A DNA stretch of 64,000 bases from Eledone cirrhosa (lineage: Eukaryota). This document shows positions 33,490 to 64,000 of this stretch, in pieces. The translations under genes were made by a program, and so were the position numbers. The notes under the pieces are model-generated. The model worked only from the letters and a program-made list of their open reading frames with translations. It was not told the origin of the DNA and ran no database searches. Position 1 is the stretch's first letter. Each line of letters begins with the position of its first letter. The stretch lies in the NCBI GenBank assembly GCA_964016885.1, contig OZ024743.1, positions 38,068,001 to 38,132,000 of the forward strand, read 5' to 3'.

Positions 33490-33628
33490 ATAGGAAAAAG
33501 TATGAACCCGGTGGCAGAGCTCAATCCGTTTCGATGGGTATTTCTGGACTAGTCAATCTATTACCCTAAGTATTGAGTACTCTGCTGCGTCATAGTCCAT
33601 CTGGTTCTTTACCACATTTCCTTCGTTA
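33490..33628. mobile_element. Hairpin-plus-tail family copy lacking its second arm
   Basis: First arm and apex are joined directly to the tail. Confidence 0.8.
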
Positions 33629-34048: not shown

Positions 34049-34138
<90 letters not shown>

Positions 34139-34642: not shown

Positions 34643-34689
<47 letters not shown>

Positions 34690-35217: not shown

Positions 35218-35897
35218 TTAGGGAGAAGTGTTTAGACGGGGTCCGTATTTGTTAATAAAGTAAGATTCCTTGCTGATGCGCTAGGTGTGGGTGGCATTAT
35301 CTTTAAATTTGTAGAGGGAAAAGATTCTGAAGTTGGGATGATTTTGGGCGGCACAGGTATCAATGTGTTCACTCAGTGGTATTTTCCTGTATTCCCGTAT
35401 TTTGGGATCTATGGACAGTCATGCGTTGGCGGAGGCTGTATTTGGTCTGGCCTATGTATTGTTCTCGACAACCTGAGCAAGTTAATACATATATTAGATT
35501 TTCCGATGCACATGTAAAATTGTGTTTTACTATAAAACGTTGTCCTTCTTTGAAATAGAATTCCGAACCCTCTATTAGGTTGATGCAAATGCCACAGTTG
35601 TGTCTATCGCATTTTTCTACTTTGGGTTTCGTTGTTCTGATTGGTAGTACTTTGGCAGGTGTTAGGATGTTTTTCATTGACTTTGATTGTCTTTTGCTCT
35701 TTATGATATCGAGTGTTCGTAGGATTTGGTTCATTCTATGGTCCTTTTTCAATACGGGGATGTTCTGGAGGATGGTGTCAAAGGCCTCATTTTTGAGGGC
35801 GTTGTGTGTGGAGATGTATGGAAGAGCTTTTAGTTTCGGTTGATTTACTTTAGGGTGTCTAAGTTCCTGGGTACTGAGTTTTAGGGCACGTTGGATT
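35218..35897 (-). pseudogene. Penelope GIY-YIG endonuclease fragment, array unit 1 (repeated in all 5 units)
   Basis: CDRHNCGIC..NFTCASENLIYVLTCSGCREQYIGQTK..LRQRMTVHR; continues after a frameshift as EHIDTC..KESYFINKYGPRLN. Unit 2 has an extra TAA at 38044. Confidence 0.9.
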
Positions 35898-36644
35898 CTT
35901 ATTAACAATGTGGTTCAATGCATCGTGTTGAAGAACAATAATATGAGATACGTGATATTTTAGTAAGTAAGTTAATTTTATAATTTTCTTATTTTACGTC
36001 TCTCATATATTTGTTCTGCAACCCCATGCATTGAACCACATTGTTAATAAGACGAAACCTATATATTTGATAGCATTGATATGCATCTGTGTGTATATAA
36101 ATGTTACTAGATATAAATTCCTTATAATTATCTCCAATTCATTTGTCGAGCAATATTTGGCCATGACTGCTACTATGGTAGTAAGCTAGCCGCTGTCTTA
36201 ATAACCACTCGCTTTCCACTGATTGACCTCGATGTCACGTGATTGATTCTTTTTGAATTTGCCACGGACGTAGAGGCAGTGATTTTGTCAATGGCTTGGA
36301 ATCCAGTCCACGCATCGCTATTTCCATTCCACTGAATTATTTTTTTAATAAGTTTCCAGTGTCCTCGCTATGCCTGGAGACCTATACGGAAAAAGACTTT
36401 CCTGATGACGGAATGATTTTCCATAAGTTTCTTCGGAAAATATATTTACTCCATTCCAGAAACTAATTAGTTGGAAGTGATTTTTTAGTAAGTAAGTTAA
36501 TTTTATAATTTTCTTATTTTACGTCTCTCATATTATTGTTCTGCAACCCCATGCATTGAACCACATTGTTAATAAGACAAAACCTATATATTTGCTAGCA
36601 TTGATATGCATCTGTGTGTATATAGATGTTACTAGATATAAATT

Positions 36645-36650
<6 letters not shown>
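35898..36650 (+). mobile_element. Retrozyme-like non-coding element (525-bp monomer + ~165-bp direct repeat + ~55-bp inverted 5' stub), array unit 1
   Basis: Direct repeat at 35961 and 36486, inverted stub at 35898-35953, internal hammerhead; homolog at 61294-61901. Confidence 0.85.
36396..36478 (+). ncRNA. Type I hammerhead ribozyme, array unit 1
   Basis: ACTTTC-CTGATGA-C-GGAATG...CATTCC-A-GAAAC TAATTA GTT-GGAAGT: 6-bp stem I, extended stem II, palindromic stem III. Confidence 0.85.
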
Positions 36651-36685
<35 letters not shown>

Positions 36686-37343
36686 TAAACGGAATAGAAA
36701 ATGCTGACAAATTGTTCACAGTTGAAAAATAGTTTAATTAGGAATAAAAGAGTATTAGTATTTGTATTGGTTAGTATTCAGTTGTGATTTTAAGTTTTTA
36801 CCTGTTGCGCATTTCTAAATCGATTTCTAAATGCTTTTCAAAAATAATTTTGAGATAGAGCGTCCGTGTTGGTTGCTCTGATCTGATTTGTTTTGGGATT
36901 TCTACCTGTTTTTATGTTAAAAAAGTGGCTCCAGCTCTACTTGGTGTTGCAAAAATTCTTGTGGTCAAAACAATTTTGATTGGTCGTTAGATGTCATGTT
37001 AATGTGAAATATTTATTTTGCGCCATGACTGAGAAATGACTCTTTCACAACAAATATGTGTGTGTTTTTGTGTGTGTGTAGTAGTAGTAAAGTGTTCGAT
37101 GTTGTGATAATGGTTACCAGGGATGTGTGTGCGAACCGCAGCCTGTTGACAGTTCAAATGGCTATTAAGATAAGTGTGTGTGTGTGTGTGTGTATCTGTG
37201 TGTGTGTGTGTGTGTGCGCGTGTGTGTGTGTGTATAGCAGAGTAATTCGTGGTAGCGGGATGGTCAGTATGAATGTGTCTGTAAGGAGTGGGTGGTATTT
37301 CAGCATGTCAAAAGATATTTTTCAGGTTTTGTCTTATACGGAG

Positions 37344-37404
<61 letters not shown>

Positions 37405-38934
37405 AGTCTCTTTGTATGTTAATGTACGCGTGTGTATGTGTGTGTGTGTGTGTATGTATATATATGTGTGTGTGTGTGTGGGTGGACCAGTATTTTTTTC
37501 CCCTGGTAAAATGGTGTACATTATTCGATATTTTCAGTAAAATCGATTCTCTCAATAGAACATCAAAAATCTTAACAATAAAAGGTGTGAAATGATATTC
37601 ACCATATATATATACATATATTCACTATATATATATATATATATATTTTGTGTTGTACCATAGAACATGTGTGTTTACGTATGTCATTGTGTTTATATGT
37701 GGGTAGATATGTGTGCTGATGTAGGTATGTATGTTGACGTGTGTATGTTGTGGGTTCGTCTTAGGGAGAAGTGTTTAGACGGGGTCCGTATTTGTTAATA
37801 AAGTAAGATTCCTTGCTGATGCGCTAGGTGTGGGTGGCATTATCTTTAAATTTGTAGAGGGAAAAGATTCTGAAGTTGGGATGATTTTGGGCGGCACAGG
37901 TATCAATGTGTTCACTCAGTGGTATTTTCCTGTATTCCCGTATTTTGGGATCTATGGACAGTCATGCGTTGGCGGAGGCTGTATTTGGTCTGGCCTATGT
38001 ATTGTTCTCGACAACCTGAGCAAGTTAATACATATATTAGATTTTACGATGCACATGTGAAATTGTGTTTTACTATAAAACGTTGTCCTTCTTTGAAATA
38101 GAATTCCGAACCCTCTATTAGGTTGATGCAAATGCCACAGTTGTGTCTATCGCATTTTTCTACTTTGGGTTTCGTTGTTCTGATTGGTAGTACTTTGGCA
38201 GGTGTTAGGATGTTTTTCATTGACTTTGATTGTCTTTTGCTCTTTATGATATCGTGTGTTCGTAGGATTTGGTTCATTCTATGGTCCTTTTTCAATACGG
38301 GGATGTTCTGGAGGATGGTGTCAAAGGCCTCATTTTTGAGGGCGTTGTGTGTGGAGATGTATGGAAGAGCTTTTAGTTTCGGTTGATTTACTTTAGGGTG
38401 TCTAAGTTCCTGGGTACTGAGTTTTAGGGCACGTTGGATTCTTATTAACAATGTGGTTCAATGCATGGTGTTGAAGAACAATAATATGAGAGACGTGATT
38501 TTTTAGTAAGTTAATTTTATAATTTTCTTATTTTACGTCTCTCATATATTTGTTCTGCAACCCCATGCATTGAACCACATTGTTAATAAGACGAAACCTA
38601 TATATTTGATAGCATTGATATGCATCTGTGTGTATATAAATGTTACTAGATATAAATTCCTTATAATTATCTCCAATTCATTTGTCGAGCAATATTTGGC
38701 CATGACTGCTACTATGGTAGTAAGCTAGCCGCTGTCTTAATAACCACTCGCTTTCTACTGATTGACCTCGATGTCACGTGATTGATTCTTTTTGAATTTG
38801 CCACGGACGTAGAGGCAGTGATTTTGTCAATGGCTTGGAATCCAGTCCACGCATCGCTATTTCCATTCCACTGAATTATTTTTTTAATAAGTTTCCAGTG
38901 TCCTCGCTATGCCTGGAGACCTATACGGAAAAAG

Positions 38935-39017
38935 ACTTTCCTGATGACGGAATGATTTTCCATAAGTTTCTTCGGAAAATATATTTACTCCATTCCAGAA
39001 ACTAATTAGTTGGAAGT
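38935..39017 (+). ncRNA. Type I hammerhead, array unit 2
   Basis: Same sequence as unit 1. Confidence 0.85.
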
Positions 39018-39183
39018 GATTTTTTAGTAAGTAAGTTAATTTTATAATTTTCTTATTTTACGTCTCTCATATTATTGTTCTGCAACCCCATGCATTGAAC
39101 CACATTGTTAATAAGACAAAACCTATATATTTGCTAGCATTGATATGCATCTGTGTGTATATAGATGTTACTAGATATAAATT

Positions 39184-39246
<63 letters not shown>

Positions 39247-39902
39247 TAAACGGAATAGAAAATGCTGACAAATTGTTCACAGTTGAAAAATAGTTTAATT
39301 AGGAATAAAAGAGTATTAGTATTTGTATTGGTTAGTATTCAGTTGTGATTTTAAGTTTTTACCTGTTGCGCATTTCTAAATCGATTTCTAAATGCTTTTC
39401 AAAAATAATTTTGAGATAGAGCGTCCGTGTTGGTTGCTCTGATCTGATTTGTTTTGGGATTTCTACCTGTTTTTATGTTAAAAAAGTGGCTCCAGCTCTA
39501 CTTGGTGTTGCAAAAATTCTTGTGGTCAAAACAATTTTGATTGGTCGTTAGATGTCATGTTAATGTGAAATATTTATTTTGCGCCATGACTGAGAAATGA
39601 CTCTTTCACAACAAATATGTGTGTGTTTTTGTGTGTGTGTAGTAGTAGTAAAGTGTTCGATGTTGTGATAATGGTTACCAGGGATGTGTGTGCGAACCGC
39701 AGCCTGTTGACAGTTCAAATGGCTATTAAGATAAGTGTGTGTGTGTGTGTGTGTATGTGTGTGTGTGTGTGTGTGCGCGTGTGTGTGTGTGTATAGCAGA
39801 GTAATTCGTGGTAGCGGGATGGTCAGTATAAATGTGTCTGTAAGGAGTGGGTGGTATTTCAGCATGTCAAAAGATATTTTTCAGGTTTTGTCTTATACGG
39901 AG

Positions 39903-39937
<35 letters not shown>

Positions 39938-41501
39938 AGTCTCTTTGTATGTTAATGTACGCGTGTGTATGTGTGTGTGTGTGTGTATGTATATATATGT
40001 GTGTGTGTGTGTGTGCGTCAGAATGTGTGTGTGTGTGTGTGTGGGTGGACCAGTATTTTTTTCCCCTGGTAAAATGGTGTACATTATTCGATATTTTCAG
40101 TAAAATCGATTCTCTCAATAGAACATCAAAAATCTTAACAATAAAAGGTGTGAAATGATATTCACCATATATATATATATACATATATTCACTATATATA
40201 TATATATATTTTGTGTTGTACCATAGAACATGTGTGTTTACGTATGTCATTGTGTTTATATGTGGGTAGATATGTGTGCTGATGTAGGTATGTATGTTGA
40301 CGTGTGTATGTTGTGGGTTCGTCTTAGGGAGAAGTGTTTAGACGGGGTCCGTATTTGTTAATAAAGTAAGATTCCTTGCTGATGCGCTAGGTGTGGGTGG
40401 CATTATCTTTAAATTTGTAGAGGGAAAAGATTCTGAAGTTGGGATGATTTTGGGCGGCACAGGTATCAATGTGTTCACTCAGTGGTATTTTCCTGTATTC
40501 CCGTATTTTGGGATCTATGGACAGTCATGCGTTGGCGGAGGCTGTATTTGGTCTGGCCTATGTATTGTTCTCGACAACCTGAGCAAGTTAATACATATAT
40601 TAGATTTTCCGATGCACATGTGAAATTGTGTTTTACTATAAAACGTTGTCCTTCTTTGAAATAGAATTCCGAACCCTCTATTAGGTTGATGCAAATGACA
40701 CAGTTGTGTCTATCGCATTTTTCTACTTTGGGTTTCGTTGTTCTGATTGGTAGTACTTTGGCAGGTGTTAGGATGTTTTTCATTGACTTTGATTGTCTTT
40801 TGCTCTTTATGATATCGTGTGTTCGTAGGATTTGGTTCATTCTATGGTCCTTTTTCAATACGGGGATGTTCTGGAGGATGGTGTCAAAGGCCTCATTTTT
40901 GAGGGCGTTGTGTGTGGAGATGTATGGAAGAGCTTTTAGTTTCGGTTGATTTACTTTAGGGTGTCTAAGTTCCTGGGTACTGAGTTTTAGGGCACGTTGG
41001 ATTCTTATTAACAATGTGGTTCAATGCATCGTGTTGAAGAACAATAATATGAGATACGTGATTTTTTAGTAAGTAAGTTAATTTTATAATTTTCTTATTT
41101 TACGTCTCTCATATATTTGTTCTGCAACCCCATGCATTGAACCACATTGTTAATAAGACGAAACCTATATATTTGATAGCATTGATATGCATCTGTGTGT
41201 ATATAAATGTTACTAGATATAAATTCCTTATAATTATCTCCAATTCATTTGTCGAGCAATATTTGGCCATGACTGCTACTATGGTAGTAAGCTAGCCGCT
41301 GTCTTAATAACCACTCGCTTTCCACTGATTGACCTCGATGTCACGTGATTGATTCTTTTTGAATTTGCCACGGACGTAGAGGCAGTGATTTTGTCAATGG
41401 CTTGGAATCCAGTCCACGCATCGCTATTTCCATTCCACTGAATTATTTTTTTAATAAGTTTCCAGTGTCCTCGCTATGCCTGGAGACCTATACGGAAAAA
41501 G

Positions 41502-41584
41502 ACTTTCCTGATGACGGAATGATTTTCCATAAGTTTCTTCGGAAAATATATTTACTCCATTCCAGAAACTAATTAGTTGGAAGT
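41502..41584 (+). ncRNA. Type I hammerhead, array unit 3
   Basis: Same sequence as unit 1. Confidence 0.85.
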
Positions 41585-41750
41585 GATTTTTTAGTAAGTA
41601 AGTTAATTTTATAATTTTCTTATTTTACGTCTCTCATATTATTGTTCTGCAACCCCATGCATTGAACCACATTGTTAATAAGACAAAACCTATATATTTG
41701 CTAGCATTGATATGCATCTGTGTGTATATAGATGTTACTAGATATAAATT

Positions 41751-41813
<63 letters not shown>

Positions 41814-42471
41814 TAAACGGAATAGAAAATGCTGACAAATTGTTCACAGTTGAAAAATAGTTTAATTAGGAATAAAAGAGTATTAGTATTTGTATTGGTT
41901 AGTATTCAGTTGTGATTTTAAGTTTTTACCTGTTGCGCATTTCTAAATCGATTTCTAAATGCTTTTCAAAAATAATTTTGAGATAGAGCGTCCGTGTTGG
42001 TTGCTCTGATCTGATTTGTTTTGGGATTTCTACCTGTTTTTATGTTAAAAAAGTGGCTCCAGCTCTACTTGGTGTTGCAAAAATTCTTGTGGTCAAAACA
42101 ATTTTGATTGGTCGTTAGATGTCATGTTAATGTGAAATATTTATTTTGCGCCATGACTGAGAAATGACTCTTTCACAACAAATATGTGTGTGTTTTTGTG
42201 TGTGTGTAGTAGTAGTAAAGTGTTCGATGTTGTGATAATGGTTACCAGGGATGTGTGTGCGAACCGCAGCCTGTTGACAGTTCAAATGGCTATTAAGATA
42301 AGTGTGTGTGTGTGTGTGTGTATCTGTGTGTGTGTGTGTGTGTGCGCGTGTGTGTGTGTGTATAGCAGAGTAATTCGTGGTAGCGGGATGGTCAGTATGA
42401 ATGTGTCTGTAAGGAGTGGGTGGTATTTCAGCATGTCAAAAGATATTTTTCAGGTTTTGTCTTATACGGAG

Positions 42472-42540
<69 letters not shown>

Positions 42541-44072
42541 AGTCTCTTTGTATGTTAATGTACGCGTGTGTATGTGTGTGTGTGTGTGTATGTATATATA
42601 TGTGTGTGTGTGTGTGGGTGGACCAGTATTTTTTTCCCCTGGTAAAATGGTGTACATTATTCGATATTTTCAGTAAAATCGATTCTCTCAATAGAACATC
42701 AAAAATCTTAACAATAAAAGGTGTGAAATGATATTCACCATATATATATACATATATTCACTATATATATATATATATATTTTGTGTTGTACCATAGAAC
42801 ATGTGTGTTTACGTATGTCATGGTGTTTATATGTGGGTAGATATGTGTGCTGATGTAGGTATGTATGTTGACGTGTGTATGTTGTGGGTTCGTCTTAGGG
42901 AGAAGTGTTTAGACGGGGTCCGTATTTGTTAATAAAGTAAGATTCCTTGCTGATGCGCTAGGTGTGGGTGGCATTATCTTTAAATTTGTAGAGGGAAAAG
43001 ATTCTGAAGTTGGGATGATTTTGGGCGGCACAGGTATCAATGTGTTCACTCAGTGGTATTTTCCTGTATTCCCGTATTTTGGGATCTATGGACAGTCATG
43101 CGTTGGCGGAGGCTGTATTTGGTCTGGCCTATGTATTGTTCTCGACAACCTGAGCAAGTTAATACATATATTAGATTTTCCGATGCACATGTGAAATTGT
43201 GTTTTACTATAAAACGTTGTCCTTCTTTGAAATAGAATTCCGAACCCTCTATTAGGTTGATGCAAATGCCACAGTTGTGTCTATCGCATTTTTCTACTTT
43301 GGGTTTCGTTGTTCTGATTGGTAGTACTTTGGCAGGTGTTAGGATGTTTTTCATTGACTTTGATTGTCTTTTGCTCTTTATGATATCGTGTGTTCGTAGG
43401 ATTTGGTTCATTCTATGGTCCTTTTTCAATACGGGGATGTTCTGGAGGATGGTGTCAAAGGCCTCATTTTTGAGGGCGTTGTGTGTGGAGATGTATGGAA
43501 GAGCTTTTAGTTTCGGTTGATTTACTTTAGGGTGTCTAAGTTCCTGGGTACTGAGTTTTAGGGCACGTTGGATTCTTATTAACAATGTGGTTCAATGCAT
43601 CGTGTTGAAGAACAATAATATGAGATACGTGATTTTTTAGTAAGTAAGTTAATTTTATAATTTTCTTATTTTACGTCTCTCATATATTTGTTCTGCAACC
43701 CCATGCATTGAACCACATTGTTAATAAGACGAAACCTATATATTTGATAGCATTGATATGCATCTGTGTGTATATAAATGTTACTAGATATAAATTCCTT
43801 ATAATTATCTCCAATTCATTTGTCGAGCAATATTTGGCCATGACTGCTACTATGGTAGTAAGCTAGCCGCTGTCTTAATAACCACTCGCTTTCCACTGAT
43901 TGACCTCGATGTCACGTGATTGATTCTTTTTGAATTTGCCACGGACGTAGAGGCAGTGATTTTGTCAATGGCTTGGAATCCAGTCCACGCATCGCTATTT
44001 CCATTCCACTGAATTATTTTTTTAATAAGTTTCCAGTGTCCTCGCTATGCCTGGAGACCTATACGGAAAAAG

Positions 44073-44155
44073 ACTTTCCTGATGACGGAATGATTTTCCA
44101 TAAGTTTCTTCGGAAAATATATTTACTCCATTCCAGAAACTAATTAGTTGGAAGT
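44073..44155 (+). ncRNA. Type I hammerhead, array unit 4
   Basis: Same sequence as unit 1. Confidence 0.85.
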
Positions 44156-44321
44156 GATTTTTTAGTAAGTAAGTTAATTTTATAATTATCTTATTTTACG
44201 TCTCTCATATTATTGTTCTGCAACCCCATGCATTGAACCACATTATTAATAAGACAAAACCTATATATTTGCTAGCATTGATATGCATCTGTGTGTATAT
44301 AGATGTTACTAGATATAAATT

Positions 44322-44386
<65 letters not shown>

Positions 44387-45043
44387 TAAACGGAATAGAA
44401 AATGCTGACAAATTGTTCACAGTTGAAAAATAGTTTAATTAGGAATAAAAGAGTATTAGTATTTGTATTGGTTAGTATTCAGTTGTGATTTTAAGTTTTT
44501 ACCTGTTGCGCATTTCTAAATCGATTTCTAAATGCTTTTCAAAAATAATTTTGAGATAGAGCGTCCGTGTTGGTTGCTCTGATCTGATTTGTTTTGGGAT
44601 TTCTACCTGTTTTTATGTTAAAAAAGTGGCTCCAGCTCTACTTGGTGTTGCAAAAATTCTTGTGGTCAAAACAATTTTGATTGGTCGTTAGATGTCATGT
44701 TAATGTGAAATATTTATTTTGCGCCATGACTGAGAAATGACTCTTTCACAACAAATATGTGTGTGTTTTTGTGTGTGTGTAGTAGTAGTAAAGTGTTCGA
44801 TGTTGTGATAATGGTTACCAGGGATGTGTGTGCGAACCGCAGCCTGTTGACAGTTCAAATGGCTATTAAGATAAGTGTGTGTGTGTGTGTGTATCTGTGT
44901 GTGTGTGTGTGTGTGCGCGTGTGTGTGTGTGTATAGCAGAGTAATTCGTGGTAGCGGGATGGTCAGTATGAATGTGTCTGTAAGGAGTGGGTGGTATTTC
45001 AGCATGTCAAAAGATATTTTTTCAGGTTTTGTCTTATACGGAG

Positions 45044-45084
<41 letters not shown>

Positions 45085-46606
45085 AGTCTCTTTGTATGTT
45101 AATGTACGCGTGTGTATGTGTGTGTATGTATATATATGTGTGTGTGTGTGTGGGTGGACCAGTATTTTTTTCCCCTGGTAAAATGGTGTACATTATTCGA
45201 TATTTTCAGTAAAATCGATTCTCAATAGAACATCAAAAATCTTAACAATAAAAGGTGTGAAATGATATTCACCATATATATATACATATATTCACTATAT
45301 ATATATATATATATTTTGTGTTGTACCATAGAACATGTGTGTTTACGTATGTCATTGTGTTTATATGTGGGTAGATATGTGTGCTGATGTAGGTATGTAT
45401 GTTGACGTGTGTATGTTGTGGGTTCGTCTTAGGGAGAAGTGTTTAGACGGGGTCCGTATTTGTTAATAAAGTAAGATTCCTTGCTGATGCGCTAGGTGTG
45501 GGTGGCATTATCTTTAAATTTGTAGAGGGAAAAGATTCTGAAGTTGGGATGATTTTGGGCGGCACAGGTATCAATGTGTTCACCCAGTGGTATTTTCCTG
45601 TATTCCCGTATTTTGGGATCTATGGACAGTCATGCGTTGGCGGAGGCTGTATTTGGTCTGGCCTATGTATTGTTCTCGACAACCTGAGCAAGTTAATACA
45701 TATATTAGATTTTCCGATGCACATGTGAAATTGTGTTTTACTATAAAACGTTGTCCTTCTTTGAAATAGAATTCCGAACCCTCTATTAGGTTGATGCAAA
45801 TGCCACAGTTGTGTCTATCGCATTTTTCTACTTTGGGTTTCGTTGTTCTAATTGGTAGTACTTTGGCAGGTGTTAGGATGTTTTTCATTGACTTTGATTG
45901 TCTTTTGCTCTTTATGATATCGTGTGTTCGTAGGATTTGGTTCATTCTATGGTCCTTTTTCAATACGGGGATGTTCTGGAGGATGGTGTCAAAGGCCTCA
46001 TTTTTGAGGGCGTTGTGTGTGGAGATGCATGGAAGAGCTTTTAGTTTCGGTTGATTTACTTTAGGGTGTCTAAGTTCCTGGGTACTGAGTTTTAGGGCAC
46101 GTTGGATTCTTATTAACAATGTGGTTCAATGCATGGTGTTGAAGAACAATAATATGAGAGACGTGATTTTTTAGTAAGTAAGTTAATTTTATAATTTTCT
46201 TATTTTACGTCTCTCATATATTTGTTCTGCAACCCCATGCATTGAACCACATTGTTAATAAGACGAAACCTATATATTTGATAGCATTGATATGCATCTG
46301 TGTGTATATAAATGTTACTAGATATAAATTCCTTATAATTATCTCCAATTCATTTGTCGAGCAATATTTGGCCATGACTGCTACTATGGTAGTAAGCTAG
46401 CCGCTGTCTTAATAACCACTCGCTTTCTACTGATTGACCTCGATGTCACGTGATTGATTCTTTTTGAATTTGCCACGGACGTAGAGGCAGTGATTTTGTC
46501 AATGGCTTGGAATCCAGTCCACGCATCGCTATTTCCATTCCACTGAATTATTTTTTTAATAAGTTTCCAGTGTCCTCGCTATGCCTGGAGACCTATACGG
46601 AAAAAG

Positions 46607-46689
46607 ACTTTCCTGATGACGGAATGATTTTCCATATGTTTCTTCGGAAAATATATTTACTCCATTCCAGAAACTAATTAGTTGGAAGT
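46607..46689 (+). ncRNA. Type I hammerhead, array unit 5
   Basis: Same as unit 1 except one loop SNP. Confidence 0.85.
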
Positions 46690-46855
46690 GATTTTTTAGT
46701 AAGTAAGTTAATTTTATAATTTTCTTATTTTACGTCTCTCATATATTTGTTCTGCAACCCCATGCATTGAACCACATTGTTAATAAGACAAAACCTATAT
46801 ATTTGCTAGCATTGATATGCATCTGTGTGTATATAGATGTTACTAGATATAAATT

Positions 46856-46927
<72 letters not shown>

Positions 46928-47290
46928 ACACACATACTCATACACATATTCACACGTACATACGCACACATACATACACACATATATACACGCATACATA
47001 GGCACACACAAATATAGATATGTGTACACACACCTACATACGCACACACACCTACATACGCACACACACAAAAATATAATAGACGACCATATAGGCCGTC
47101 AGATAAGAATAAAAATAAATGTAAACATTTTTATAAAGTTGACAGCGATACAGGAAACAAATAAATGAACAAACCCACGTGGTAAGCAATACACACAATT
47201 ACACATACACATACATACATATAAATAAATATATACACACACATACACATACATATGCGCATACATATACATACACATATACATACACAT

Positions 47291-49669: not shown

Positions 49670-52600
49670 CACTTTGACCGACCAGTCTGTCGGGCGTCCA
49701 TTCGGCGCCGCTGGACTCAGCACGCCGTCCATTCCTCTCTGGATCGTGCTTTCCTCATCCATGTAGTCCCAATCGTATTCTTAAAATCGTAACTCCACCT
49801 TCGTGGAGGCCTTCCGAATGGTCGTTTCCGCTCGCGCGGGTACCACTCGGCAACTGCGCGAGTCCACCGATTATCGGTGAACCGGGCGACGTGTCCAGCC
49901 CATCTGAACTTGCTGCGCATATACTCCGAGATGACGTCCCTCACGCAGGACTTCTGTCTGATGACTTCGCTCCCGATGTGCTCTCTCAACGAGGTTCCTA
50001 GCATTGATCTCTCCATGGCTCTTTGAGCCGTTACCAGCCTCTGCTCTTCTCTCTTCGTTGTAGCCAAAGTTTCCCTGCCATATAACATTGCAGGTAAAAC
50101 TGTGCTATTGAAGAGGTTGGCGCTGGTGGTTTTGTCCAACCTCCCCTTGAGCACATCCCTTATGCCGTCGAACGCCTTTCATCCGGCCCTTACTCTCCGC
50201 GAGATCTCCTTCTCAATATCTCGGCGCATGTTCACCTCTTATCCCAGGTAGACGTATTCCTCCACCTCCTCTATTTCATCACCGCCAACCACCATTCGAC
50301 ATGTTGGTATGTTGTCGGACCACATGAACTTCGTTTTCATGCGGTTCATCTTGAGGCCTACTGCAGTGCTTTTGATGTCGAACTCCGTCAGCATGGTCTG
50401 AAGCTGATCCGTGGTTTCATCGATGAGTACGATGTCATCAGCGAAACGGAGGTGGGTAAGTATCTCACCTCTGATGTCGACACCGCCTTGCCAGTCAATG
50501 CTTCTGATGAAAAGTTTTAGAGAGATCGTATCTTCTTGCTTCACTCCCTTCTCCACCAGCACTCGTACGGGTGATGACAGCAGAGCTATGTCGGTGATAC
50601 ATCCGGAACTCGCCTTCATGAGCAGTTGAACGTATTGCGCCTCGACTCCTTGCATCTGCAGCGAGTTCAGAACTGCGTTGATTTCGACGCTGTCGAAGGC
50701 CTTCTCGTAGTCTACGAACGCGACGCAAAGAGGCATCTTGTATTCTTTTGCTCGCTCAAGCAGTTATGTCAGAGTAAATATGTGGTCCATCGTGCTGTAG
50801 TTTTTCCGGAAGCCGGTTTGCTCTCTCGGTTGCTGTTCGTTCAGATGACGTGATAACCTGTTCAGGATTATCTTCGTGAACAGCTTTTACACGTGCGACA
50901 GCAGGCATATGGGTCAGTAGTTCTTCAGCAATTCTCTATCGCCCTTCTTGTATAGCATGATGGTATTCGACTCTTCCACTGCGAGGGTATTCTAACCTCG
51001 TCCAGATAGTGTGTGAATCGCTCGGCGAGGATTTTCCAGAGCTGCTCTCCGCCTGACTTCAACACCTCCGATGTTATGCCGTCTTTCCCTGGCGCCTTTC
51101 GGCTTTTCATCAAGCCGACGGCTCTTTCGACCTCCCCGACAAGGATGCGTGGACGTTTTCTTCCTGTTGGAGTGAAGGCAACAGCTGCACATTCCAGGCA
51201 GACCTGAAGAGCTTGGTGTAGAAGTCTTCGCAAACCTTTTCCACCTCACTCTTGTCGCTGACCGGTACTCCAGCTGTGTTTTTCAGGGTCGTCAACTCCG
51301 ATCTGTACATTGTCATGTCCCTCTCGCATTTCTTGACGCTCTTCTTTTCCTTTGCTGCCTTCACAAGCTTCTCCACCCGGTATGCCTCGAAGTCTCTCTT
51401 CAGTTGTTTACATATCACTCTGCTGGGAAGGAAATATTCGAGGTGATCTTCAGGTGTCCACTTCATATTTTCCCTCTTCTCAAGCAATTTCATAGTTTCC
51501 TCCAAGACTCTTCCCTTCCGCTCCCTCAGGCACACACCCTTAGCCTTCTTCAAGCACTCCTTCAGTTTCCTTATCAGTGACTCGTAGTCAGCGTCTATGC
51601 CGTCTCCTTGACGCCACCTTTCCTGCATAATGGCTTCCTGCAGCTGTGCCTCGTTGAAGACCCGGACGCGTTCTCCCTTCGATGCCGAATGGAGTACCTT
51701 CTTCTTCCTCGTCCGGTCGATGGCGATTCTCGCCCTCACCAGACGATGATCATTTCCAGTGTTGAATGGCGTTATGACGGAGACGTCCTGCAGTATGCGT
51801 CGCTTGTCGACCAAGATGTAGTCAATCTCGTTTCCGTGCTCAGAATTTGGCGATACCCAGGTCCATCTCTTCTCCTTCTTCCTGAATAGGCTGTTTCCGA
51901 TGTAGAACCGTCTCGCCTCCGCCATGGTGACCAGACGCTCTCCTCTCTCATTCCGCTCTCCTAGGCCGAATCTTCCGACATACTCTTCCCCTTGGCGTCC
52001 CTGTCCGACCTTTGCGTTGAAGTCTCCCATCACGACGGTGTAAGTGGACTTCACAGCTAGCACTTTGTCTAGCTGGCGATAGAATTCTTCCACGCCATCT
52101 TCGTCGCTGGCACTTGTGGGAGCGTAGGTCTGGACGATCTTGAGGGTGGCTTTCCCTGAGAGTTTCACGCTCAGTACACCAATCCGTGACGATATGACTG
52201 GCAGGAAGCGACCTTCGTAGCCCATTCCTTGCTTACAATGAACCCTATACCTCCGACCGAACTGGCACCCTGTGCTTTCCCGAGTCTCAAGGCGCATTCA
52301 CCTTGCCATCGCGAACTCGTATCCCTCTTCTGGTAGGTCTCACGTGACACCTGCTCGTCTTCTCCTCCATTAGGTGGTTCAGTCCTTGACCCCTGCCAAA
52401 GACCTGCAGTTGTAGGTGCATATGGCAAGTTTAGTCCTGTTCCTTGGCGGCCTTCGGGAACCTGTGATTCGTAGCAGCCTCTCGTCGTTCGGGTTGCACT
52501 CCGCCGTCGTGGAGTGGCCCGATTGACACGCAGGGTACCGAGGCCCTTTTCTTCGTGCTGTTTTAACCATAAGATGACGCCATCTCACTGGCTGGGCGGG

Positions 52601-53400: not shown

Positions 53401-54454
53401 TTAAGTTATTCAAGTCCATCACTGAACACATACCGATGAAGTGACCAAACTGAAACATCGGATTCATTTGTACCTTCCTACTGAAAAAATAAATGTATAC
53501 ACACGCAGCCTTATCCGCAAAAAAACAACAGAAGTTACTGCATATTAAATGATTCCATATTTTCTATCTGTATGCACATGCGAATAATCAAATGATTTGC
53601 TTATCAAATTAATGGGCAAGTGCCTGAGCATTCTCACGTGTGCATTTAATGTAGGTTTCAGTGAGCTTCAGTGTGTCTTAATGTGTAAAACGACTGACCA
53701 TTTAATTTGTATATACACCTCGGTACAACTGTTCATAATCGAGTGGATTAGAGAACACAACGCCCCGCCCATCCTGGCATATACTTACACACGCTTATTC
53801 ATAAACTACGAACGTATTTTACTTCACATTTCTGGCCATTCTCTGGAGGAAGACTTCTATAATTTCTTACCGATATGTGTGGTATTCGACACCTGTGTAT
53901 TCCCACCCCCAATAATCTTTCTTGTTTCACTAATTTCGTCTCCCTTCCTCTGCCTTCATACGTTCCCTTCTTTCTTGTTTTCTTTCGCTTTTAGCAATAG
54001 CCTCATAAAATAACGGTAATTTTACCCGCCCAATATATATATATATATATGAATGTATATATAGTGTATATTGCAATACACTGTATGCTTAATTAAAAGC
54101 ATTTCGAAGGCCTAACGCTATTGTTTTAGAGTAGTGACAGTCTCACTTACTTTAATGAAAGTTTGATTCTTATAGAATTCTAGTAATAATCAGGAACTGA
54201 TTATACAAAGCGGTTGCCGGTGAAGCAGAATAATATAACACTAAATAATATAATACTAATAATATAATACTAATAATATAATACTAATAATGGTTATTAG
54301 TATCATATTATTTAGCGTTGCTTGTCGTTTGTTGCACCTCAATGTTGTTCTTTAAAGTGTTTGCTTTTATTTTAAATTCTCTTACACACACACACATGCA
54401 CACACTCACATCTGCGAGTATATATACACACATTGATTATATATATATATATAT

Positions 54455-56360: not shown

Positions 56361-56930
<570 letters not shown>

Positions 56931-57078
56931 AATTAACTCCGTACTCGCACCACCAACTACACAAACAAAGACGGGTGAGTTGCATTACGTTGAGTGCTCT
57001 CCATATTATTACATCGAGGTTGCCCACACGGAATGACCAGTTCTATCCGGTAGTGAACCAACAAACAGAAATAAATAA

Positions 57079-57136
<58 letters not shown>

Positions 57137-57144
<8 letters not shown>

Positions 57145-60100
57145 CGTAGTTAAGAAAGCCACAACAATGCAGAGGGAAATCTCGAGGTAGGAAGTGAATG
57201 ATAGATAGGAGAAACAGGAGAAAGTGAAAATTGGGAGAGACAAAGATGAAAACAAAACAAAGGTAGAAGGGTTACCGTAGTGGAGATTTAATCCCAATAT
57301 TTCGGGCTCACGCCCATCAACGGGGGAAAGTTCCAAAAGTGGGGGAACAGGCCAAGCGGAGAAAGTTGTGATGTCGTTAAGACAGGAATGCCGTTATGGG
57401 GAGAAAATTATTTAAAATGTAAACGAGGGAAAGAATGCGCGTGCGCGTGATAGGCTGTGGCAAAAGCTACTGACCAAATGGGTTAAATCAAGAGGGTGCG
57501 CTAGCGTGTGAAAGCCGTAAAATATGTGTGTGTAAATATATATGTGTGTGTAACTGTGTGTGTATAAGTGTAAGTGTGTATATGTGTGAGTGTGTGTGTG
57601 TGTGAAAGATAGTGGGCTGTAGAAGCTGGAAATCAAAGGGTGTGAAAGGTGGTAGGTTGTAAAACATGTGTGCGTGTATAAATATAGATGTGTGTGTGTA
57701 AGCGTATGGGTATACATGTGTGTGTAACTGTGTGTGTATATGTTTGAGTGCGTGTGTGTGTGAAAGATAGTGGGCTGTAGAAGCTGGAAATCAAAGGGTG
57801 TGAAAGGTGGTAGGTTGTAAAAACATGTGTGCGTGTATAAATATAGATGTGTGTGTGTATGCTTATGGGTATGCATATACGTGCGTGTGTGTGAAGATAG
57901 CAGGCCGTAGGCTGTGAATGGTCACTATGGTTAAGTTAGCCATGTCAGCTCATTTCTCTCAGCCCGGTTGTTAAGTGGGGGTCTGAGGTTCTTAATAACA
58001 AGTGCTTCCTTTATCCTTAAGGATCCGATGCTGCGTTCAGTCGCTAGGACTGTGACCAAGGGTCTACCCTGTGGGTTTCCGCATTTAAGGATGTGTTTAC
58101 GGAAGGAAGATGCGTTGGTGTTGATATGTTCCTTGATACGAACATGTAGGGGTCGGATGGTGCTACCTATGTAAAACTTGTTACATTTATCGCATTGAAT
58201 CTTATATACGACATAGGTGCGTAGGCAATCTGCCCCCCGTATCGGGCAGTTGCTGAGGGAACACGTCCCATCTGACTCGTCGGGTTTGCTGGAGAGGCAT
58301 CTTCGCAGCGAAGGTCCTGTGTGGGCCAAATATATGTCAAGTCCCTCCGTCCGTATGGCCCTGCGGATAGCGTTCGTGGTATATTCACTCAGGTGGGGGA
58401 TTTTAAAGAAGCACCTGCTTTTATTTAAGTTTCTAGTGGGTGTCTGTCTATTGGGTCTGGGGTCTCTAATTCTGTTAATCAGTCGCTTGGGATAACCATT
58501 AGATCTGAGTAGATTACGGAATTGCGTGGTATGGGTGAGACCACCCATCGGGTCGCTGCATCTGTTAGTGATCCGTGTCAGTTCATTTAGGACATAGCCT
58601 CTCTTAGCGTTGTTGGGGAGGGCTGAGTTGTAATGCACAAATAAGTCCTTGCACGCTGCTTTGCGGTAGAAAGTGGTGTTTATGTCTCCTTCTTCCGAGA
58701 TGTTGATACGGAAGTCGAGGAGGGCGAGTGACCCGTCTTCTCCTGGGTGTTCGATGGTGAAATCGACGTGATGGTCAGTATCGTTGACGATTTGGTGAAT
58801 TTCATTCGCCATCTCCCGGGAAGAAGTAAGTATCAGGATGTCATCAACGTATCTGGAGTAGAAGGCGACGGCGTTGGGTTGGCAGGTATTGAGTGCCTTG
58901 CGTTCCAGGTGGTCCATGTACGAGATCGCAAGTATGCCGGACAGACTAGAGCCCATAGGTAGCCCAGATATTTGTTTGTACGTGTGGCCGAGGAAATTGA
59001 AGAGTGCATTATCCACAACGAAGGAGAGGAGTTGGTGGATGTCCGTGTGTGTGAGTCCGAAGCAGTGTAAGTTAGATGCTCGGACTTGTTCGGTCAACAG
59101 GTCGACAGCTGGGGATGCTGGTACGGAGGTATAAAGGGCGACCACATCAAGACTGAAGGCATAACCGTTGTCCTTTCTGGTGTTGGGCGCCAGATGGTGT
59201 AGTCGCTCCAAGACCTCCTTTGAGCTGCAGACGTGGGCTGCTAGTGTGTGTAGAATGGGTTTCAGTAGTGTGGAGAGCAGCCACGATATTTTGTAGAGTG
59301 GGCCCTCCACGCTAGAGACAATGGGCCTGATTTTCAAATCGGGTCCTTGTTTATGTGTTTTAACCAGGTGGTAGAAGGTGGGTAGTTTGCTGTTTCGAGT
59401 CATTATGTTGTTTTTTACCTTCTTTGGCAGTTTTCGTTGGACACAGATGTTAGTCCATATGGTGTTAATGCCTTCCTCGATTAGAGTCGAGGAGGTCCCT
59501 GTGACTTTCGAGTAGAGGCTGTGATCATTAAGATGTTGGAGAGCTAAGTTGTTGTAGGTCTCTCTCGAGATGACACAGAATTCTTTCCCCTTGTCAGAGG
59601 GAAGGTACACAAGGTTCCTGGATCTTAAATTGTGCATTGGTGAGGTTGCGTTTATTGTGTGTGTGTGTGTGTTGGGAAAGGATGTTAGAGATAGAATGTT
59701 TCAACCTGAGTTGTTTAGTGTCAAGTTCGTGGTTGGTGGGTGGGGGGTGGAGTGGGTTGTCGAGGTGATACGTGGGGAGTGTGGGGTGGGTTGTGGGGTT
59801 GTAATCGATCTCGGTGTTGTTTTGGATGGCGGTTAGCCATTTCAGTTGATATGCTGTCCGACAGAAGTTGGTTTCGATGTCGAGTTTCAGTCTATCATCG
59901 AGACGCTGTGTAATGATGAACTTGGGTCCGAGGCGCAGAAGTTCGAGTTCGTCGTTGGTGAGAGTACCGGTTAGGTCGGTAACGAGGTGTGAAGCATCGT
60001 TGGTAGGTAGATCGATGTTGGGGGGTGTAGCGGAGGGTGTTGTATAGCTGTTGCCCCTGGTGTGGTTGTAGTCGGTCCGTCTGTGGGAGCGGATGTTGTC

Positions 60101-61116
60101 ATTGTAGTATTTGTTTACAGTCCATTCCTATTTCCGTATAAGGCGCTGTTTATCATATTTGACTCTGGTGTGGTAACACTGATCGATAGCTTTGCGTATT
60201 TCCTGGACCTGGTGGTCAGGGGTGAGGGTTGGAGCTATACGATCTATGTGCTCGGAAAGCGTTTGTATATGGAGTCGCAGTTGGTGGTGGTTGTGTCGTA
60301 GTATTTTCTTGATAAACGTGCGTTGAATGTGGCGGATTGTGTTTTCGAAGGATGGTGATCGTAAACATTCGGGTAGATGTATATTCCTGATGGTAGTTGG
60401 AATGATGTTGTTCTTTAGGCAGCGTTTTAAGAAGGTAATTTGGCAACCGAGTTTGGCACGATTCTCCGATAGTCTGAATAGGTCCCTTATGGGTGCAAAC
60501 AAGTCCTGGCTCAGGTGTAATGATAAGAGGGTGTTAAAGTTTGCTTGAAGCATTGTGAAATGTGTAAAATACGTAGTTAAGAAAGCCACAACAATGCAGA
60601 GGGAAATCTCGAGGTAGGAAGTGAATGATAGATAGGAGAAACAGGAGAAAGTGAAAATTGGGAGAGACAAAGATGAAAACAAAACAAAGGTAGAAGGGTT
60701 ACCGTAGTGGAGATTTAATCCCAATATTTCGGGCTCACGCCCATCAACGGGGGAAAGTTCCAAAAGGGGGGGAACAGGCCAAGCGGAGAAAGTTGTGATG
60801 TCGTTAAGACAGGAATGCCGTTATGGGGAGGAAATTATTTAAAATTTAAACGAGGGAAAGAATGCGCGTGCGCGTGATAGGCTGTGGCAAAAGCTACTGA
60901 CCAAATGGGTTAAATCAAGAGGGTGCGCTAGCGTGTGAAAGCCGTAAAATATGTGTGTGTAAATATATATGTGTGTGTAACTGTGTGTGTATAAGTGTAA
61001 GTGTGTATATGTGTGATTGTGTGTGTGTGTGAAAGATAGTGGGCTGTAGAAGCTGGAAATCAAAGGGTGTGAAAGGTGGTAGGTTGTAAAACATGTGTGC
61101 GTGTATAAATATAGAT
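57137..61116 (-). mobile_element. Near-full-length Penelope-like retroelement with tandem pseudo-LTRs
   Basis: ~550-bp direct repeats at 57137-57689 and 60565-61116 flank an RT/GIY-YIG ORF; the 3' end runs into (TA)n. Confidence 0.95.
57931..60553 (-). pseudogene. PLE polyprotein (N-term, RT, Cys linker, GIY-YIG) with one TAG and one frameshift
   Basis: Starts MLQANFNTLL; TAG at 60128; LRLGPKF; frameshift near 59630; then PSDKG, KTHK..IRPIVS, SLDVVALYTSV, GLPMGSSLS, RYVDD, VVYKIQC..FYIGST..RIKEH. Confidence 0.92.
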
Positions 61117-61236
61117 AACGATAAATTGGAATAGAATGAAACGAAATTTCATTTCTCACTCTTAGTACGGCACTTACTTAAATGTAATTATGTATGTATA
61201 CGTACATACATATATATATACAGACGTACAGTAGCA

Positions 61237-61293
<57 letters not shown>

Positions 61294-61304
<11 letters not shown>

Positions 61305-61901
61305 GACGTAAAATAAGAAAATTTTAAAAAAATTAAAAAAATTAACCTACTTACTAAAATTTTCACTCCAACTAATTAGTTTCTGCAATGGGATAAAGAC
61401 AGTTACGTAATCCAACTGTCGAGAATTCATTGCGTCATCAGGGAGTCTATTCTCAGCTAAGTCTCCAGGCAATGCGCGGACACTGGGGACTCATATAAAA
61501 ATAATAATAATTCGGTAGATGGAACAGCTAGCGGGGACTGGATTCCATGTACTGAAAAGCTCGCTGCCTCTGGTCAAATGGCAGATTCTAAAGAATCAAT
61601 CACGTGACACTGAGGCTAGTCGGTAGGATGGGATGGTAAGATGACAGAAGCCTACTATCACACCAATAAATTAGTAGTTGTTTTGGCAGGTTTGCTCGAC
61701 AAATAAGCAATTTGGAGATAAATATAGAGAATTTAGTATATCTACTAACATATGCGTACAGATTTACGCTAATGCCAGCAAATACACAGGTTATGTCATA
61801 GTACCTAGGTGGTTCGATGCAGGAGGATGCAGAACAATAATATAAAAGACGTAAAATAAGAAAATTTTAAAAAAATTATAAAATTAACTTACTTACTAAA
61901 A
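61294..61901 (-). mobile_element. Diverged dispersed copy of the array's retrozyme-like element (period ~542 bp)
   Basis: Collinear blocks shared with 35961-36650: TGTCACGTGATTGATTCTTT, TGGAATCCAGTCC, TGCCTGGAGAC, GAAACTAATTAGTTGG. Confidence 0.85.
61365..61446 (-). ncRNA. Type I hammerhead ribozyme
   Basis: ACTCC-CTGATGA-C-GCAATG...CATTGC-A-GAAAC TAATTA GTT-GGAGT. Confidence 0.87.
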
Positions 61902-62049
61902 GGTACACATATATATATGTACGTATCAGTTTAGCGAACGTTTATTATAACGCTCGCTCTGTTCGTTTGTAAACAAAAGGACAGCCTGATTTATGCCGTA
62001 CGGTGTTAAGGCAACCACGTCACCTTTTTGTTCAACACTGACACAGGAA

Positions 62050-62090
62050 CGATGTACTAGTTTCAAGCTTGTTAGCTATCGTCAGCACCG
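62050..62090 (-). ncRNA. Minimal type I hammerhead ribozyme
   Basis: CGGTG-CTGACGA-T-AGCT AACA AGCT-T-GAAAC TA GTA-CATCG. Confidence 0.82.
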
Positions 62091-62728
62091 TATACCCTTC
62101 TGCCAGATGGTTGAACGTTCGAAAGTATATACTTTCCTTATGAAAATTAACGGCTGAGCAGCCTAATTTGCATATCGAGTGCGTTCAGTCCGCCAGGCGC
62201 ACCGAAAACGATAAATTGGAATAGAATGAAATGAAATTTCATTTCTCACTCTTAGTACGGCACTTACTTAAATGTAAGTATGTATGTATACGTACATACA
62301 TATATGTATACATATATGTACATACATATATGTACATTCATATATGTATACAGACGTAAGAGTGAGAAATGAAATTTCGTTTCATTCTATTCCAATTTAT
62401 CGTTATATATATATATATATATCCATGCTACTGTACGTCTATATACATATTTGTATGTACGTATACATACATACTTACATTTAAGTAAGTGCCGTACTAA
62501 GAGTGAGAAAAGAAATTTCGTTTCATTCTATTCCAATTTATATATATATATATACATATATATAGTTAAAGAAAGAAGAGTAATATGATTGACTTTACAC
62601 TAAGGGCTTTATTTAAAGTACTGACAATTGTTTAGTTGATCAGGTGTGTCTAGAGTTCGGTAATCGCTTCAGGTTGCGTCAATCAATCTCCAATACATTG
62701 TTTACCACTGGTCAACACATTGGACCAC

Positions 62729-62805
<77 letters not shown>

Positions 62806-62907
62806 TTCCGAATAATAATAACTCCAGAAAACTTTCTTGTAGAGTGCTTTTAATCTATTGTAAAACTATATTCATTGAGTAATCAATGAACCCTATTAAA
62901 GTTTAGT

Positions 62908-62955
<48 letters not shown>

Positions 62956-62958
<3 letters not shown>

Positions 62959-63577
62959 AATTAAGATAAATCAAATGAAGTTAATCCCAATCAAAATTAT
63001 GGGTGTCATGCCAGAAAGACATGCGCCATATCACCCGCAAAATAAGCTCTAAGATTCTAACGAGTAGGTCCGAGCATTTTATAATAACTAGAAATTGATT
63101 AACATATAAATAAACATGAGATAATTTTTACAAGTGTGTAACCACACATAGCTAGGTAGGTAACTACATAAAGTTGACCAGAACTTCAAAAATAGATACC
63201 TTATAATATGATTAATCTTCCCTGTATATATTCCATTAAATAAATATATTACACCAATTAATCGGATGGTAAACCACGGAAGTGGATACTTGGATTTTCA
63301 ACAAGGAAGAAGTTCCAGCGATCATTGTTTACACTTCAAGTTCAAATCAGCAACTGGCCAGTAACACGTGCTATATCTACTAGAAATACACACATCGCAC
63401 TAGCTTCGTCCCAGTAGCGTGAATAGGGTTATCGACAACTAGAAACAGCAGTCGAGTCCTTTCAACAGAGTTAGCTCTACAATTAAGGAGCCGTATTTAT
63501 ATATCTATATCCAAAATTAAGATAAATCAAATGAATTTAATCCAAATCAAAATTATGGGTGTCATGCCAGAAAGACA
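62956..63577 (+). mobile_element. (TA)n-flanked element with ~65-bp terminal direct repeat (period ~556 bp)
   Basis: CAAAATTAAGATAAATCAAATGAA...GCCAGAAAGACAT at 62956 and 63512; GAAAC AGCA GTC half-motif at ~63442. Confidence 0.72.
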
Positions 63578-63585
63578 TATATATA

Positions 63586-64000
63586 TATAAAAGAAATAGG
63601 ATTTCACTTCAAGCATAGCTTTATACAATTTGTATAAATATTTCGTATCTCCAAAGAAATACGGTTTTAGGAAGCCGTAGCTAAGCAAATACCGGGGGGA
63701 TAACGCCCTCTGGTGATGTCCAGCTGAAGCAAGGGGGACAACCGTCTATGCATTTCAGGCTTAACTGGCCATCGTCAGGACGGTCGCTCCCACCGCTTGC
63801 GTCTGCTGGACTAGAAGACAGGCGAGAATATATATTTATCTCGTATGTGTAAATGAGGTGATTAATCTCATTTGCATATGATGCTACATAAGTTGGCTCA
63901 ACTTATAATAAAAAAGAAATAGGATTTCGCTTCAAGCATAGCTTTATACAAATAAATACGGTTTTAGGAAGCTGTAGCTATGCAAACACCGGGGAGGGGG
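63586..64000 (-). mobile_element. Third retrozyme-like family (period ~323 bp), truncated by the window end
   Basis: AAGAAATAGGATTTC..TTCAAGCATAGC occurs at 63591 and 63914; internal hammerhead. Confidence 0.78.
63740..63785 (-). ncRNA. Minimal type I hammerhead ribozyme
   Basis: GACCGTC-CTGACGA-T-GGC CAGTTAA GCC-T-GAAAT GC ATA-GACGGTT. Confidence 0.85.

Follow-up and report, generated by a model that had tools for sequence, protein, structure and literature searches.

What has assembled the dense run of repeats at the end of this 64,000-nucleotide stretch of the Eledone cirrhosa genome (the window; contig OZ024743.1, positions 38,068,001-38,132,000), and does a Penelope-like element (PLE) there drive the spread of the non-coding ribozyme elements, or retrozymes, beside it? 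The genome searched for other copies comprised 3.0 Gb. The locus is best read, with a probability of roughly 0.8, as a chain linked at (TA)n tracts, in which about eight elements from different PLE and non-LTR (long terminal repeat) retrozyme families inserted separately; the chain probably grew through PLE enzymes that insert into TA in either orientation and leave TA for later elements. Read on the minus strand, the order is retrozyme family E, family D, a scrap X2 in the opposite direction, a scrap X1, family C with inverted pieces, family B inside C, the PLE and finally element Y in the opposite direction (Table 1). The core of the locus is mostly known biology and no new kind of system is present.

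TA junctions and strand direction

Junctions were scored at 19, 27, 28 and 29 non-self loci for the PLE, B, C and E respectively, using top-scoring copies and dropping self loci and three duplicates. Loci without an end motif or flank were excluded and the background rate of meeting TA was 7.0%. The 3' end was followed by TA in 15/15 PLE, 25/26 B, 18/25 C and 21/28 E copies, and a position-ordered sample of B gave 23/26 against 18.6%. The genome-wide enrichment at (TA)n which the first-pass annotation had put forward as a check is therefore present. Non-inverted 5' junctions lay at TA in 7/12 PLE, 10/11 B, 1/5 C and 2/6 E copies; C and E are looser and use plain AT-rich sites as well. Target duplications were found at L018 (63 nt, TA included), L067, L086 and L101.

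Family C carries a TA spacer of its own. The pieces at 61117-61260 and 61901-62350 are one element, and other copies of C show the body, the TA spacer and the 3' part, with a spacer length of 11-129 nt in 37 matches, some of them from overlapping loci. The left part of the spacer has been replaced by B in the window while uninterrupted C units keep it. B is read as nested in the spacer of C because the uninterrupted units already carry that spacer. The earlier proposals that a second retrozyme is hosted in the TA tract of the first, and that insertions leave TA targets for later ones, are both supported by this arrangement, the latter also by the TA junctions. B is joined through TA to C elsewhere too, in the spacer region of C (L040) and at its 3' end (L041). 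A candidate module 'A', considered as a miniature inverted-repeat transposable element with terminal inverted repeats, was rejected as it is part of the C unit.

The (TA)n runs might alternatively be tails, made at insertion or later by untemplated or slipped synthesis, or microsatellites seeded by AT-rich 3' ends, rather than earlier targets. The 3' ends of the elements do finish in TA-like letters, TA is met much more consistently at the 3' ends than at the 5' ends, most markedly in C and E, and some E copies lie at merely AT-rich sites with short duplications (L086 and L101). However, randomly truncated 5' ends also meet TA in B (10/11) and the PLE (7/12), the 63-nt duplication at L018 contains TA, and B occupies a spacer that exists already in uninterrupted C units. 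Because of these three observations the junction sequences support TA as the target rather than the tail, and the tail explanation is considered unlikely. Harder still to credit is the suggestion that insertion is just broadly AT-biased and that the link with TA arises by retention in gene-poor repeat graveyards. TA tracts are indeed dense in this genome, at 2.5 per kb, and PLE endonucleases favour AT-rich DNA in vitro according to the available text of PMC11167929, but the association is seen at base-level junctions, in 72-100% of cases against the 7% background.

Several observations weigh against the reading of the locus as a chain of TA-targeted insertions. A clean 3' TA run is absent from 7/25 C and 7/28 E ends, and the non-inverted 5' ends of these two families are seldom at TA. 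Clear target duplications were found at just 4 scored loci, duplications of TA alone being undetectable, and no empty allele was seen. The TA tracts may also have been lengthened by slippage after insertion. Finally, none of the families B, C, D and E has sequence in common with the pseudo-LTR (pLTR) of the window PLE, which does match a sister PLE.

Known PLE biology suggests how TA-targeted insertion would proceed. A GIY-YIG nick in (TA)n would prime reverse transcription of a multimeric or circular RNA, with synthesis beginning internally at either of two fixed positions that lie downstream of the hammerhead; such internal starts would generate partial tandems, two types of 3' end and 5' inversions. 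B, C, D and E would borrow the reverse transcriptase (RT) and endonuclease (EN) of one or more PLE families. At this locus C would have inserted first, followed by B into the C spacer and by the PLE into TA after the 3' end of C, with TA being lost at the 5' joint of the PLE.

The modules had been described at first pass as co-oriented, which raises the possibility of a dedicated helper-parasite system in which the window PLE mobilises these particular retrozymes and insertions point the same way, for example by template jumping or co-transcription. Six of the eight chain elements and all five hammerhead folds within 57137-64000 are on the minus strand, and C meets the PLE without TA between them. 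However, six out of eight has p = 0.29, and the four motifs originally listed, which do all lie on the minus strand, have p = 0.125, or a chance of 1 in 8. Co-orientation thus holds for those motifs but not for the chain, in which X2, Y and the inverted pieces of C and E are on the plus strand. Elsewhere in the genome, 56 TA-joined neighbours from different families gave 25 on the same strand and 31 on opposite strands (p = 0.50, 95% interval 0.31-0.59), with tail-to-tail the commonest facing (39/56). This stricter recount agrees with that of all adjacent different-family pairs (46 same, 41 opposite, n = 87), the element library for which has some flanking contamination. Random orientation, named beforehand by the first-pass annotation as the result that would count against it, is therefore what was found in this sample. 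Furthermore, C was present at the 5' end of the PLE in the same manner in 0/19 other PLE loci. The shared strand direction at the locus is no more than chance and a dedicated helper-parasite system is very unlikely.

No PLE open reading frame (ORF) was found directly upstream of B, C, D or E units in the loci compared. These four families also gave no match to the 3' regions of the window PLE, the sister PLE or a PLE fragment at 33 kb, a small sample of the PLE families in this genome, which also include others ending in TA, one of them the fragment at 32.6-33.1 kb. A neighbour from a different family lay within 200 nt of 44/175 bait copies as opposed to 4.6% under uniform placing. The clustering is real, and TA preference alone roughly accounts for it because 96/602 random TA tracts abut a library element.

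Table 1. Features of the chain in the window, with coordinates on the forward strand.
Feature	Position	Strand	Remarks
Element Y, PLE-type non-coding neighbour	56518-57075	+	Orientation predicted from fixed TA-adjacent ends in other copies
Y, inverted 5' part	56518-56720		Main part of Y on +; Y tail-to-tail with PLE
Y, hammerhead-like motif CUGAUGA...GAAAUGAUCAUA	near 56830		Within Y
(TA)n tract at PLE 3' end	57083-57137	none	
PLE, whole	57138-61116	-	RT and C-terminal GIY-YIG
PLE 3' pLTR	57138-57689	-	Short 3' end type
Second copy of variant hammerhead	57292-57327	-	In 3' pLTR
PLE ORF	57931-60553	-	RT and C-terminal GIY-YIG
PLE 5' pLTR	60565-61116	-	5'-truncated partial tandem; abuts family C
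60.7-kb motif, type I fold, non-canonical core C-C-G-U-U-G-A	60719-60754	-	Predicted site after 60723; in 5' pLTR
Family C, 3' part	61117-61239	-	Downstream of internal TA spacer of C
(TA)n spacer of C unit	61240-61293	none	Holds 3' end of B
Retrozyme family B	61294-61900	-	Unit about 543 nt, with 1.1 units here; lies within C
B hammerhead, type I	61365-61454	-	Predicted site after 61370; C.A mismatch at stem II base
Retrozyme family C, body	61901-62350	-	Unit about 420-525 nt depending on spacer
C hammerhead, minimal type I	62049-62091	-	Predicted site after 62055; U.U at stem II base; palindromic ACUAGU helix III
Inverted family C pieces	62351-62541	+	Ending in TA
X1, 3' scrap of another PLE-type family	62565-62730	-	Between TA tracts; fixed 3' end and longer-tail variants at other loci
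X2, 3' scrap of another hammerhead family	62800-62912	+	Tail-to-tail with D
Retrozyme family D	62955-63578	-	Unit about 566-568 nt, 1.1 units
D hammerhead, type I, U3-A8 core	63216-63310	-	9-bp stem I, 9-bp helix III
Retrozyme family E	63579-64000	-	Unit about 323 nt; extends beyond window; inverted plus-strand part just past window end
E hammerhead, minimal type I	63738-63787	-	Predicted site after 63747; 9-bp stem I; palindromic AUGCAU helix III

The Penelope-like element and the retrozymes

The frames of the window PLE (57931-60820, minus strand) matched the RT domain PF00078 with E 1e-11 and, weakly, the GIY-YIG domain (21.7 bits against a cut-off of 22.6). Its two pLTRs are direct repeats of 552 nt which are 99.3% alike. 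The earlier assignment as an autonomous-type PLE is thus upheld for the architecture but not for this copy. Here one stop near 60128 interrupts the frame and, compared with the copy at L002, 17 nt have been deleted at 59627. Open frames of 877-886 aa were found in 3/19 other loci (L002, L003 and L004), and the intact family protein, P0001 (879 aa), gave E 9e-11 with PF00078 and 21.7 bits with PF01541 (cut-off 22.6). Proteins of this intact type carry the motifs GPKF and DKG, a short cysteine linker and an endonuclease of the CCHH type, and the YIG, R, H, E, N and CCHH residues could be picked out by eye. The family, with 3,059 candidates genome-wide and 94-99% identity among the matches listed, is young and abundant.

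The single ORF with RT and C-terminal GIY-YIG, the pLTRs in partial tandem, the 5' truncation and inversion and the optional tail are those of an EN-bearing (EN+) PLE. The 3' ends take two forms about 40 nt apart, and two types of 3' end are likewise present in B and D. The 5' end meets family C at 61116/61117, so the direct joint between PLE and retrozyme noted at first pass is confirmed. Membership of Naiad or Hydra was ruled out by the C-terminal EN, the DKG motif and the presence of CCHH, following the definitions in the available text of PMC8557442, by which Naiad has an N-terminal EN and DKA whereas Hydra has DKT and lacks CCHH. The short cysteine linker is closest by eye to the Nematis/PNL2_SM rows of Fig. 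S2 of that paper, Nematis being marked by a reduced CX2-5CxxC linker. Relatives of the protein numbered 13, at 25-51% identity and none of them bearing a clade label, and a scan of metagenomes for relatives gave none that was confirmed.

Further PLE sequences were noted in the window. A 3' fragment of a different PLE at 32600-33480 (plus strand) has a GIY-YIG domain with the full CX4CxxC linker, then a 3' region ending in TA. The sister PLE family has left a scrap of its pLTR at 26450-26786 (minus strand), in which its C-A-G-U-U-G-A core is again present. In both PLE families a possible conserved long-range helix, AAATCTC with GAGATTT about 100 nt apart and different sequence between them, was seen by eye downstream of the hammerhead (window 60565-60720, minus strand; sister loci L175-L211).

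Families B, C, D and E have the attributes of non-LTR retrozymes, namely a short non-coding unit with one type I hammerhead that is both dispersed and in tandem. Each is dispersed, with 1,800-3,400 candidates per family and with partial tandems and 5' inversions, and the window ORF list holds no coding ORF of at least 100 aa over any of their units. The first-pass description of non-coding ribozyme repeats with PLE-type insertion anatomy therefore agrees with these results, as does its mention of further TA-bounded modules, which proved to be D, E and the scraps X1 and X2. The sequence of X2 runs on into the reverse complement of a hammerhead in loci L039 and L087. Inverted copies were present at 7/20 PLE, 18/30 B, 24/30 C and 23/30 E loci, although palindromic repeats may have raised the count for C. 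Contigs of four sequencing runs also contained pieces of B and C.

Elsewhere in the window, positions 34136-46930 hold a five-copy tandem array with a period of about 2540-2570 nt, each unit ending in (TA)n. The unit contains a plus-strand relative of B, 71% identical and with its hammerhead intact in 5/5 copies, adjoining another repeat. A non-LTR retrotransposon that looks RTE-like lies at 49717-52300 (minus strand); it is broken and contains RT together with a domain of the apurinic endonuclease type. Very frequent short elements with TA on both sides were seen at 23321-23519, 27097-27299 and 33471-33626 and at L155, where one copy can be modelled as a type I fold having a U3 core and a long helix III.

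Hammerhead folds and the variant core

A strict type I hammerhead descriptor was run on the window and on 600 kb of evenly spaced genome stretches. The stretches gave 18 matches, with none in shuffles and none in reversed sequence, and the extrapolated genome total is about 90,000 type I hammerheads (53,000-142,000). Within the window the descriptor matched the B, C and E motifs on the minus strand and the five plus-strand copies of the B relative in the 34-47 kb array. The minus-strand motifs reported earlier at 61.4, 62.07 and 63.76 kb were hence recovered as strict type I matches, but that at 60.7 kb fails the descriptor and fits the type I fold only with a changed core. The four motifs had been taken to be of four different kinds; as modelled they are variants of one class, the type I hammerhead, and a fifth, in D, had been overlooked. 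The type-SGC (non-circularly permuted) order of site, GAAA and CUGAnGA, as set out in the accessible part of PMC10085705, was rejected since all five motifs read CUGA block, GAAA block, site; the scraps X1 and X2 were not searched. Rfam gave no ribozyme family for any motif, with three sub-stretches taken to E 10 and none among the 150 of 170 window matches listed, and its microRNA matches in the window are TA/CA repeats below the gathering score.

The B hammerhead has a branched loop II and a pseudoknot of 5-6 bp formed with the strand that precedes stem I, and its pattern gave 12,881 genome matches against 0 for the reversed-pattern control. In 14 hand-picked divergent copies 92.5% of 361 cells were paired and both sides changed in 9/26 pairs, including pairs in stem II, in the extra loop II hairpin and in the pseudoknot. 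Slid alignments as a control gave 40-53% paired, with the caveat that sequences which are related may outdo shuffles. The sixth pair of the pseudoknot does not hold in 10/14 copies. The C pattern gave 25,447 matches and a tight pattern for E gave 605, each against 0 for the reversed control; covariation was seen in stem I of C while E showed nothing beyond single changes. For D there were 1,456 matches (0 in the control), and the 100 listed of the 1,456 comprised 85 with U3-A8, 11 with C3-G8 and 4 mismatched. An intact D copy folded with z = -4.3. The window copy of D has its GAAA box changed to GUAA and is, judging from this sequence, probably inactive. Folding energy z values were -0.14 and -0.51 for the C motif and 0.29 and -1.58 for the 60.7-kb motif (two computations each), and folding energy alone gives no support for either.

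Two side observations concern hammerheads outside the chain. The genome stretches L115-L171 contain at least 10 different families of type I hammerheads. Almost all are followed by a TA tract at a distance of 40-190 nt, and in two of these families the palindromic helix III is ATATATAT itself. In the window, an isolated CCGATGA...GAAAC motif with a 3-bp stem lies at 53433-53460 (plus strand).

The 60.7-kb motif fits the type I fold if the core is read as C3 C4 G5 U6 U7 G8 A9 plus a bulged U. Thus U4 is changed to C and A6 to U, with a stem II of GGGC/GCCC, a GUGA loop and a palindromic helix III. The motif was at one point taken to be a decayed hammerhead lacking G8/A9 but this was dropped, as a covarying sister family pointed to the U4/A6 reading. 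The sister is an autonomous PLE family, 55-70% identical in most protein matches, in which the core is C-A-G-U-U-G-A and stem II is GGAU/AUCC instead (2,931 matches). A third PLE subfamily with the variant core has a five-base loop. The general C(C/A)GUUGA pattern gave 5,354 genome matches against 14 in the control, and a search for a canonical-core version with the stem II and helix III of the 60.7-kb motif gave 2 matches, neither of them canonical. The variant-core fold has therefore probably been selected, on the strength of two to three related lineages, all seen in this genome alone.

Whether such a core would cut is another matter. Changes at A6 lower hammerhead activity, and A6C has been described with low activity (PMC3088659, available text). 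Because of this, weak or no cutting by the 60.7-kb motif is the likelier outcome. The C(C/A)GUUGA core was not found in the portions of the literature examined, where A6C was found but not the U4 and A6 pair, although coverage of work on variant PLE hammerheads was incomplete. It is possible, if on the whole doubtful, that an autonomous PLE clade has kept the hammerhead fold with a fixed core in which two positions that are normally invariant have changed, while intact cores are retained by the non-coding retrozymes that exploit PLE enzymes. Such a motif would be either an undescribed active core, dimer- or protein-assisted, or a non-cutting protein-binding signal. The role of hammerheads in PLEs is described as unclear in the accessible text of PMC8557442, and in that of PMC11167929 a core mutation left insertion in vitro unblocked.

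Relation to known systems

The scheme of TA targeting with retrozymes is largely published already. In the available portions of the sources, (TA)n targets are given for Neptune, Hydra and Naiad PLEs, two Octopus Naiads from the supplement being among the last (Craig et al. 2021, PMC8557442), and retrozymes are regarded as non-autonomous PLE derivatives (PMC7229834; bioRxiv 10.64898/2026.07.22.740005). The PLE 'tail' is explained there by two internal RT start sites (PMC11167929; the tail is also in PMC8557442), and tandem PLE insertion and dimer cleavage have been reviewed (PMC6765202). Pseudoknots of the kind seen in B, U.U closing mismatches and U3-A8 cores are all known (PMC3088659; PMC4209133; PMC7229834). 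An Octopus repeat annotation lists young Penelope families, and the word 'ribozyme' is absent from its accessible text (PMC13282606).

With EN+ PLEs having a C-terminal GIY-YIG (Nematis, Neptune, Hydra and Penelope/Poseidon, as far as described in the available part of PMC8557442) the window PLE shares a single ORF with GPKF, DKG, the RT core and a CCHH-type GIY-YIG, as well as pLTRs, 5' truncation and inversion, an optional tail of about 40 nt and (TA)n insertion. It differs in the one cysteine missing from its Nematis-like linker and in the non-canonical hammerhead core of its pLTRs. Animal non-LTR retrozymes (Cervera and de la Pena 2020, PMC7229834; Li et al., bioRxiv 10.64898/2026.07.22.740005), in the text available, share with B, C, D and E a non-coding unit that is 320-570 nt long and holds a single type I hammerhead, the AT-rich sequence, the range from monomers to multimers and the tens of thousands of copies, and the U.U at the base of stem II in family C is known from axolotl in the same sources. 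What differs here is the (TA)n targeting at junction level, the mixed-family chains and a unit that includes a TA spacer; the accessible text of PMC7229834 lacks the word 'microsatellite'.

The minimal hammerheads of PLE pLTRs and their core variants (Cervera and de la Pena 2014, PMC4209133; Perreault et al. 2011, PMC3088659) likewise share the bulged base after A9, G10.1-C11.1 and the palindromic helix III, together with the U3-A8 covariation of D, the stem I-stem II pseudoknot of B and the U.U closing mismatch. Not met in the available text of those two papers are the change of U4 to C/A plus A6 to U across sister autonomous families and the branched loop II of B with its C.A closing mismatch. 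The SaTar elements of guayule and rice (Valdes Franco et al. 2018, PMC5907723) also build linear arrays of unrelated small non-autonomous elements by microsatellite targeting. However, in the part of that paper available, SaTar elements are plant Mutator-like DNA transposons which are never nested, whereas the present elements are ribozyme-bearing retroelements of an animal, with B nested inside C. Searches of the accessible literature, in which subscription journals are little covered, for retrozymes nested in microsatellites or present in cephalopods gave no paper with an arrangement like the present one.

On the reading of the locus as a chain of TA-joined insertions, retrozymes would join autonomous PLEs as elements that target microsatellites, and the frequent element ends flanking TA tracts in this genome would have a simple explanation. 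The locus also supplies five natural hammerhead variants from young, high-copy families, one of them with a changed core in autonomous elements, which could be assayed side by side. If the tentative interpretation of the variant core is true, these families would form a natural experiment in which cleavage is important to the parasites but not to the helper. Taken with a retrozyme that bears its own TA landing pad, the ribozyme-rich TA chains would then be a self-renewing niche.

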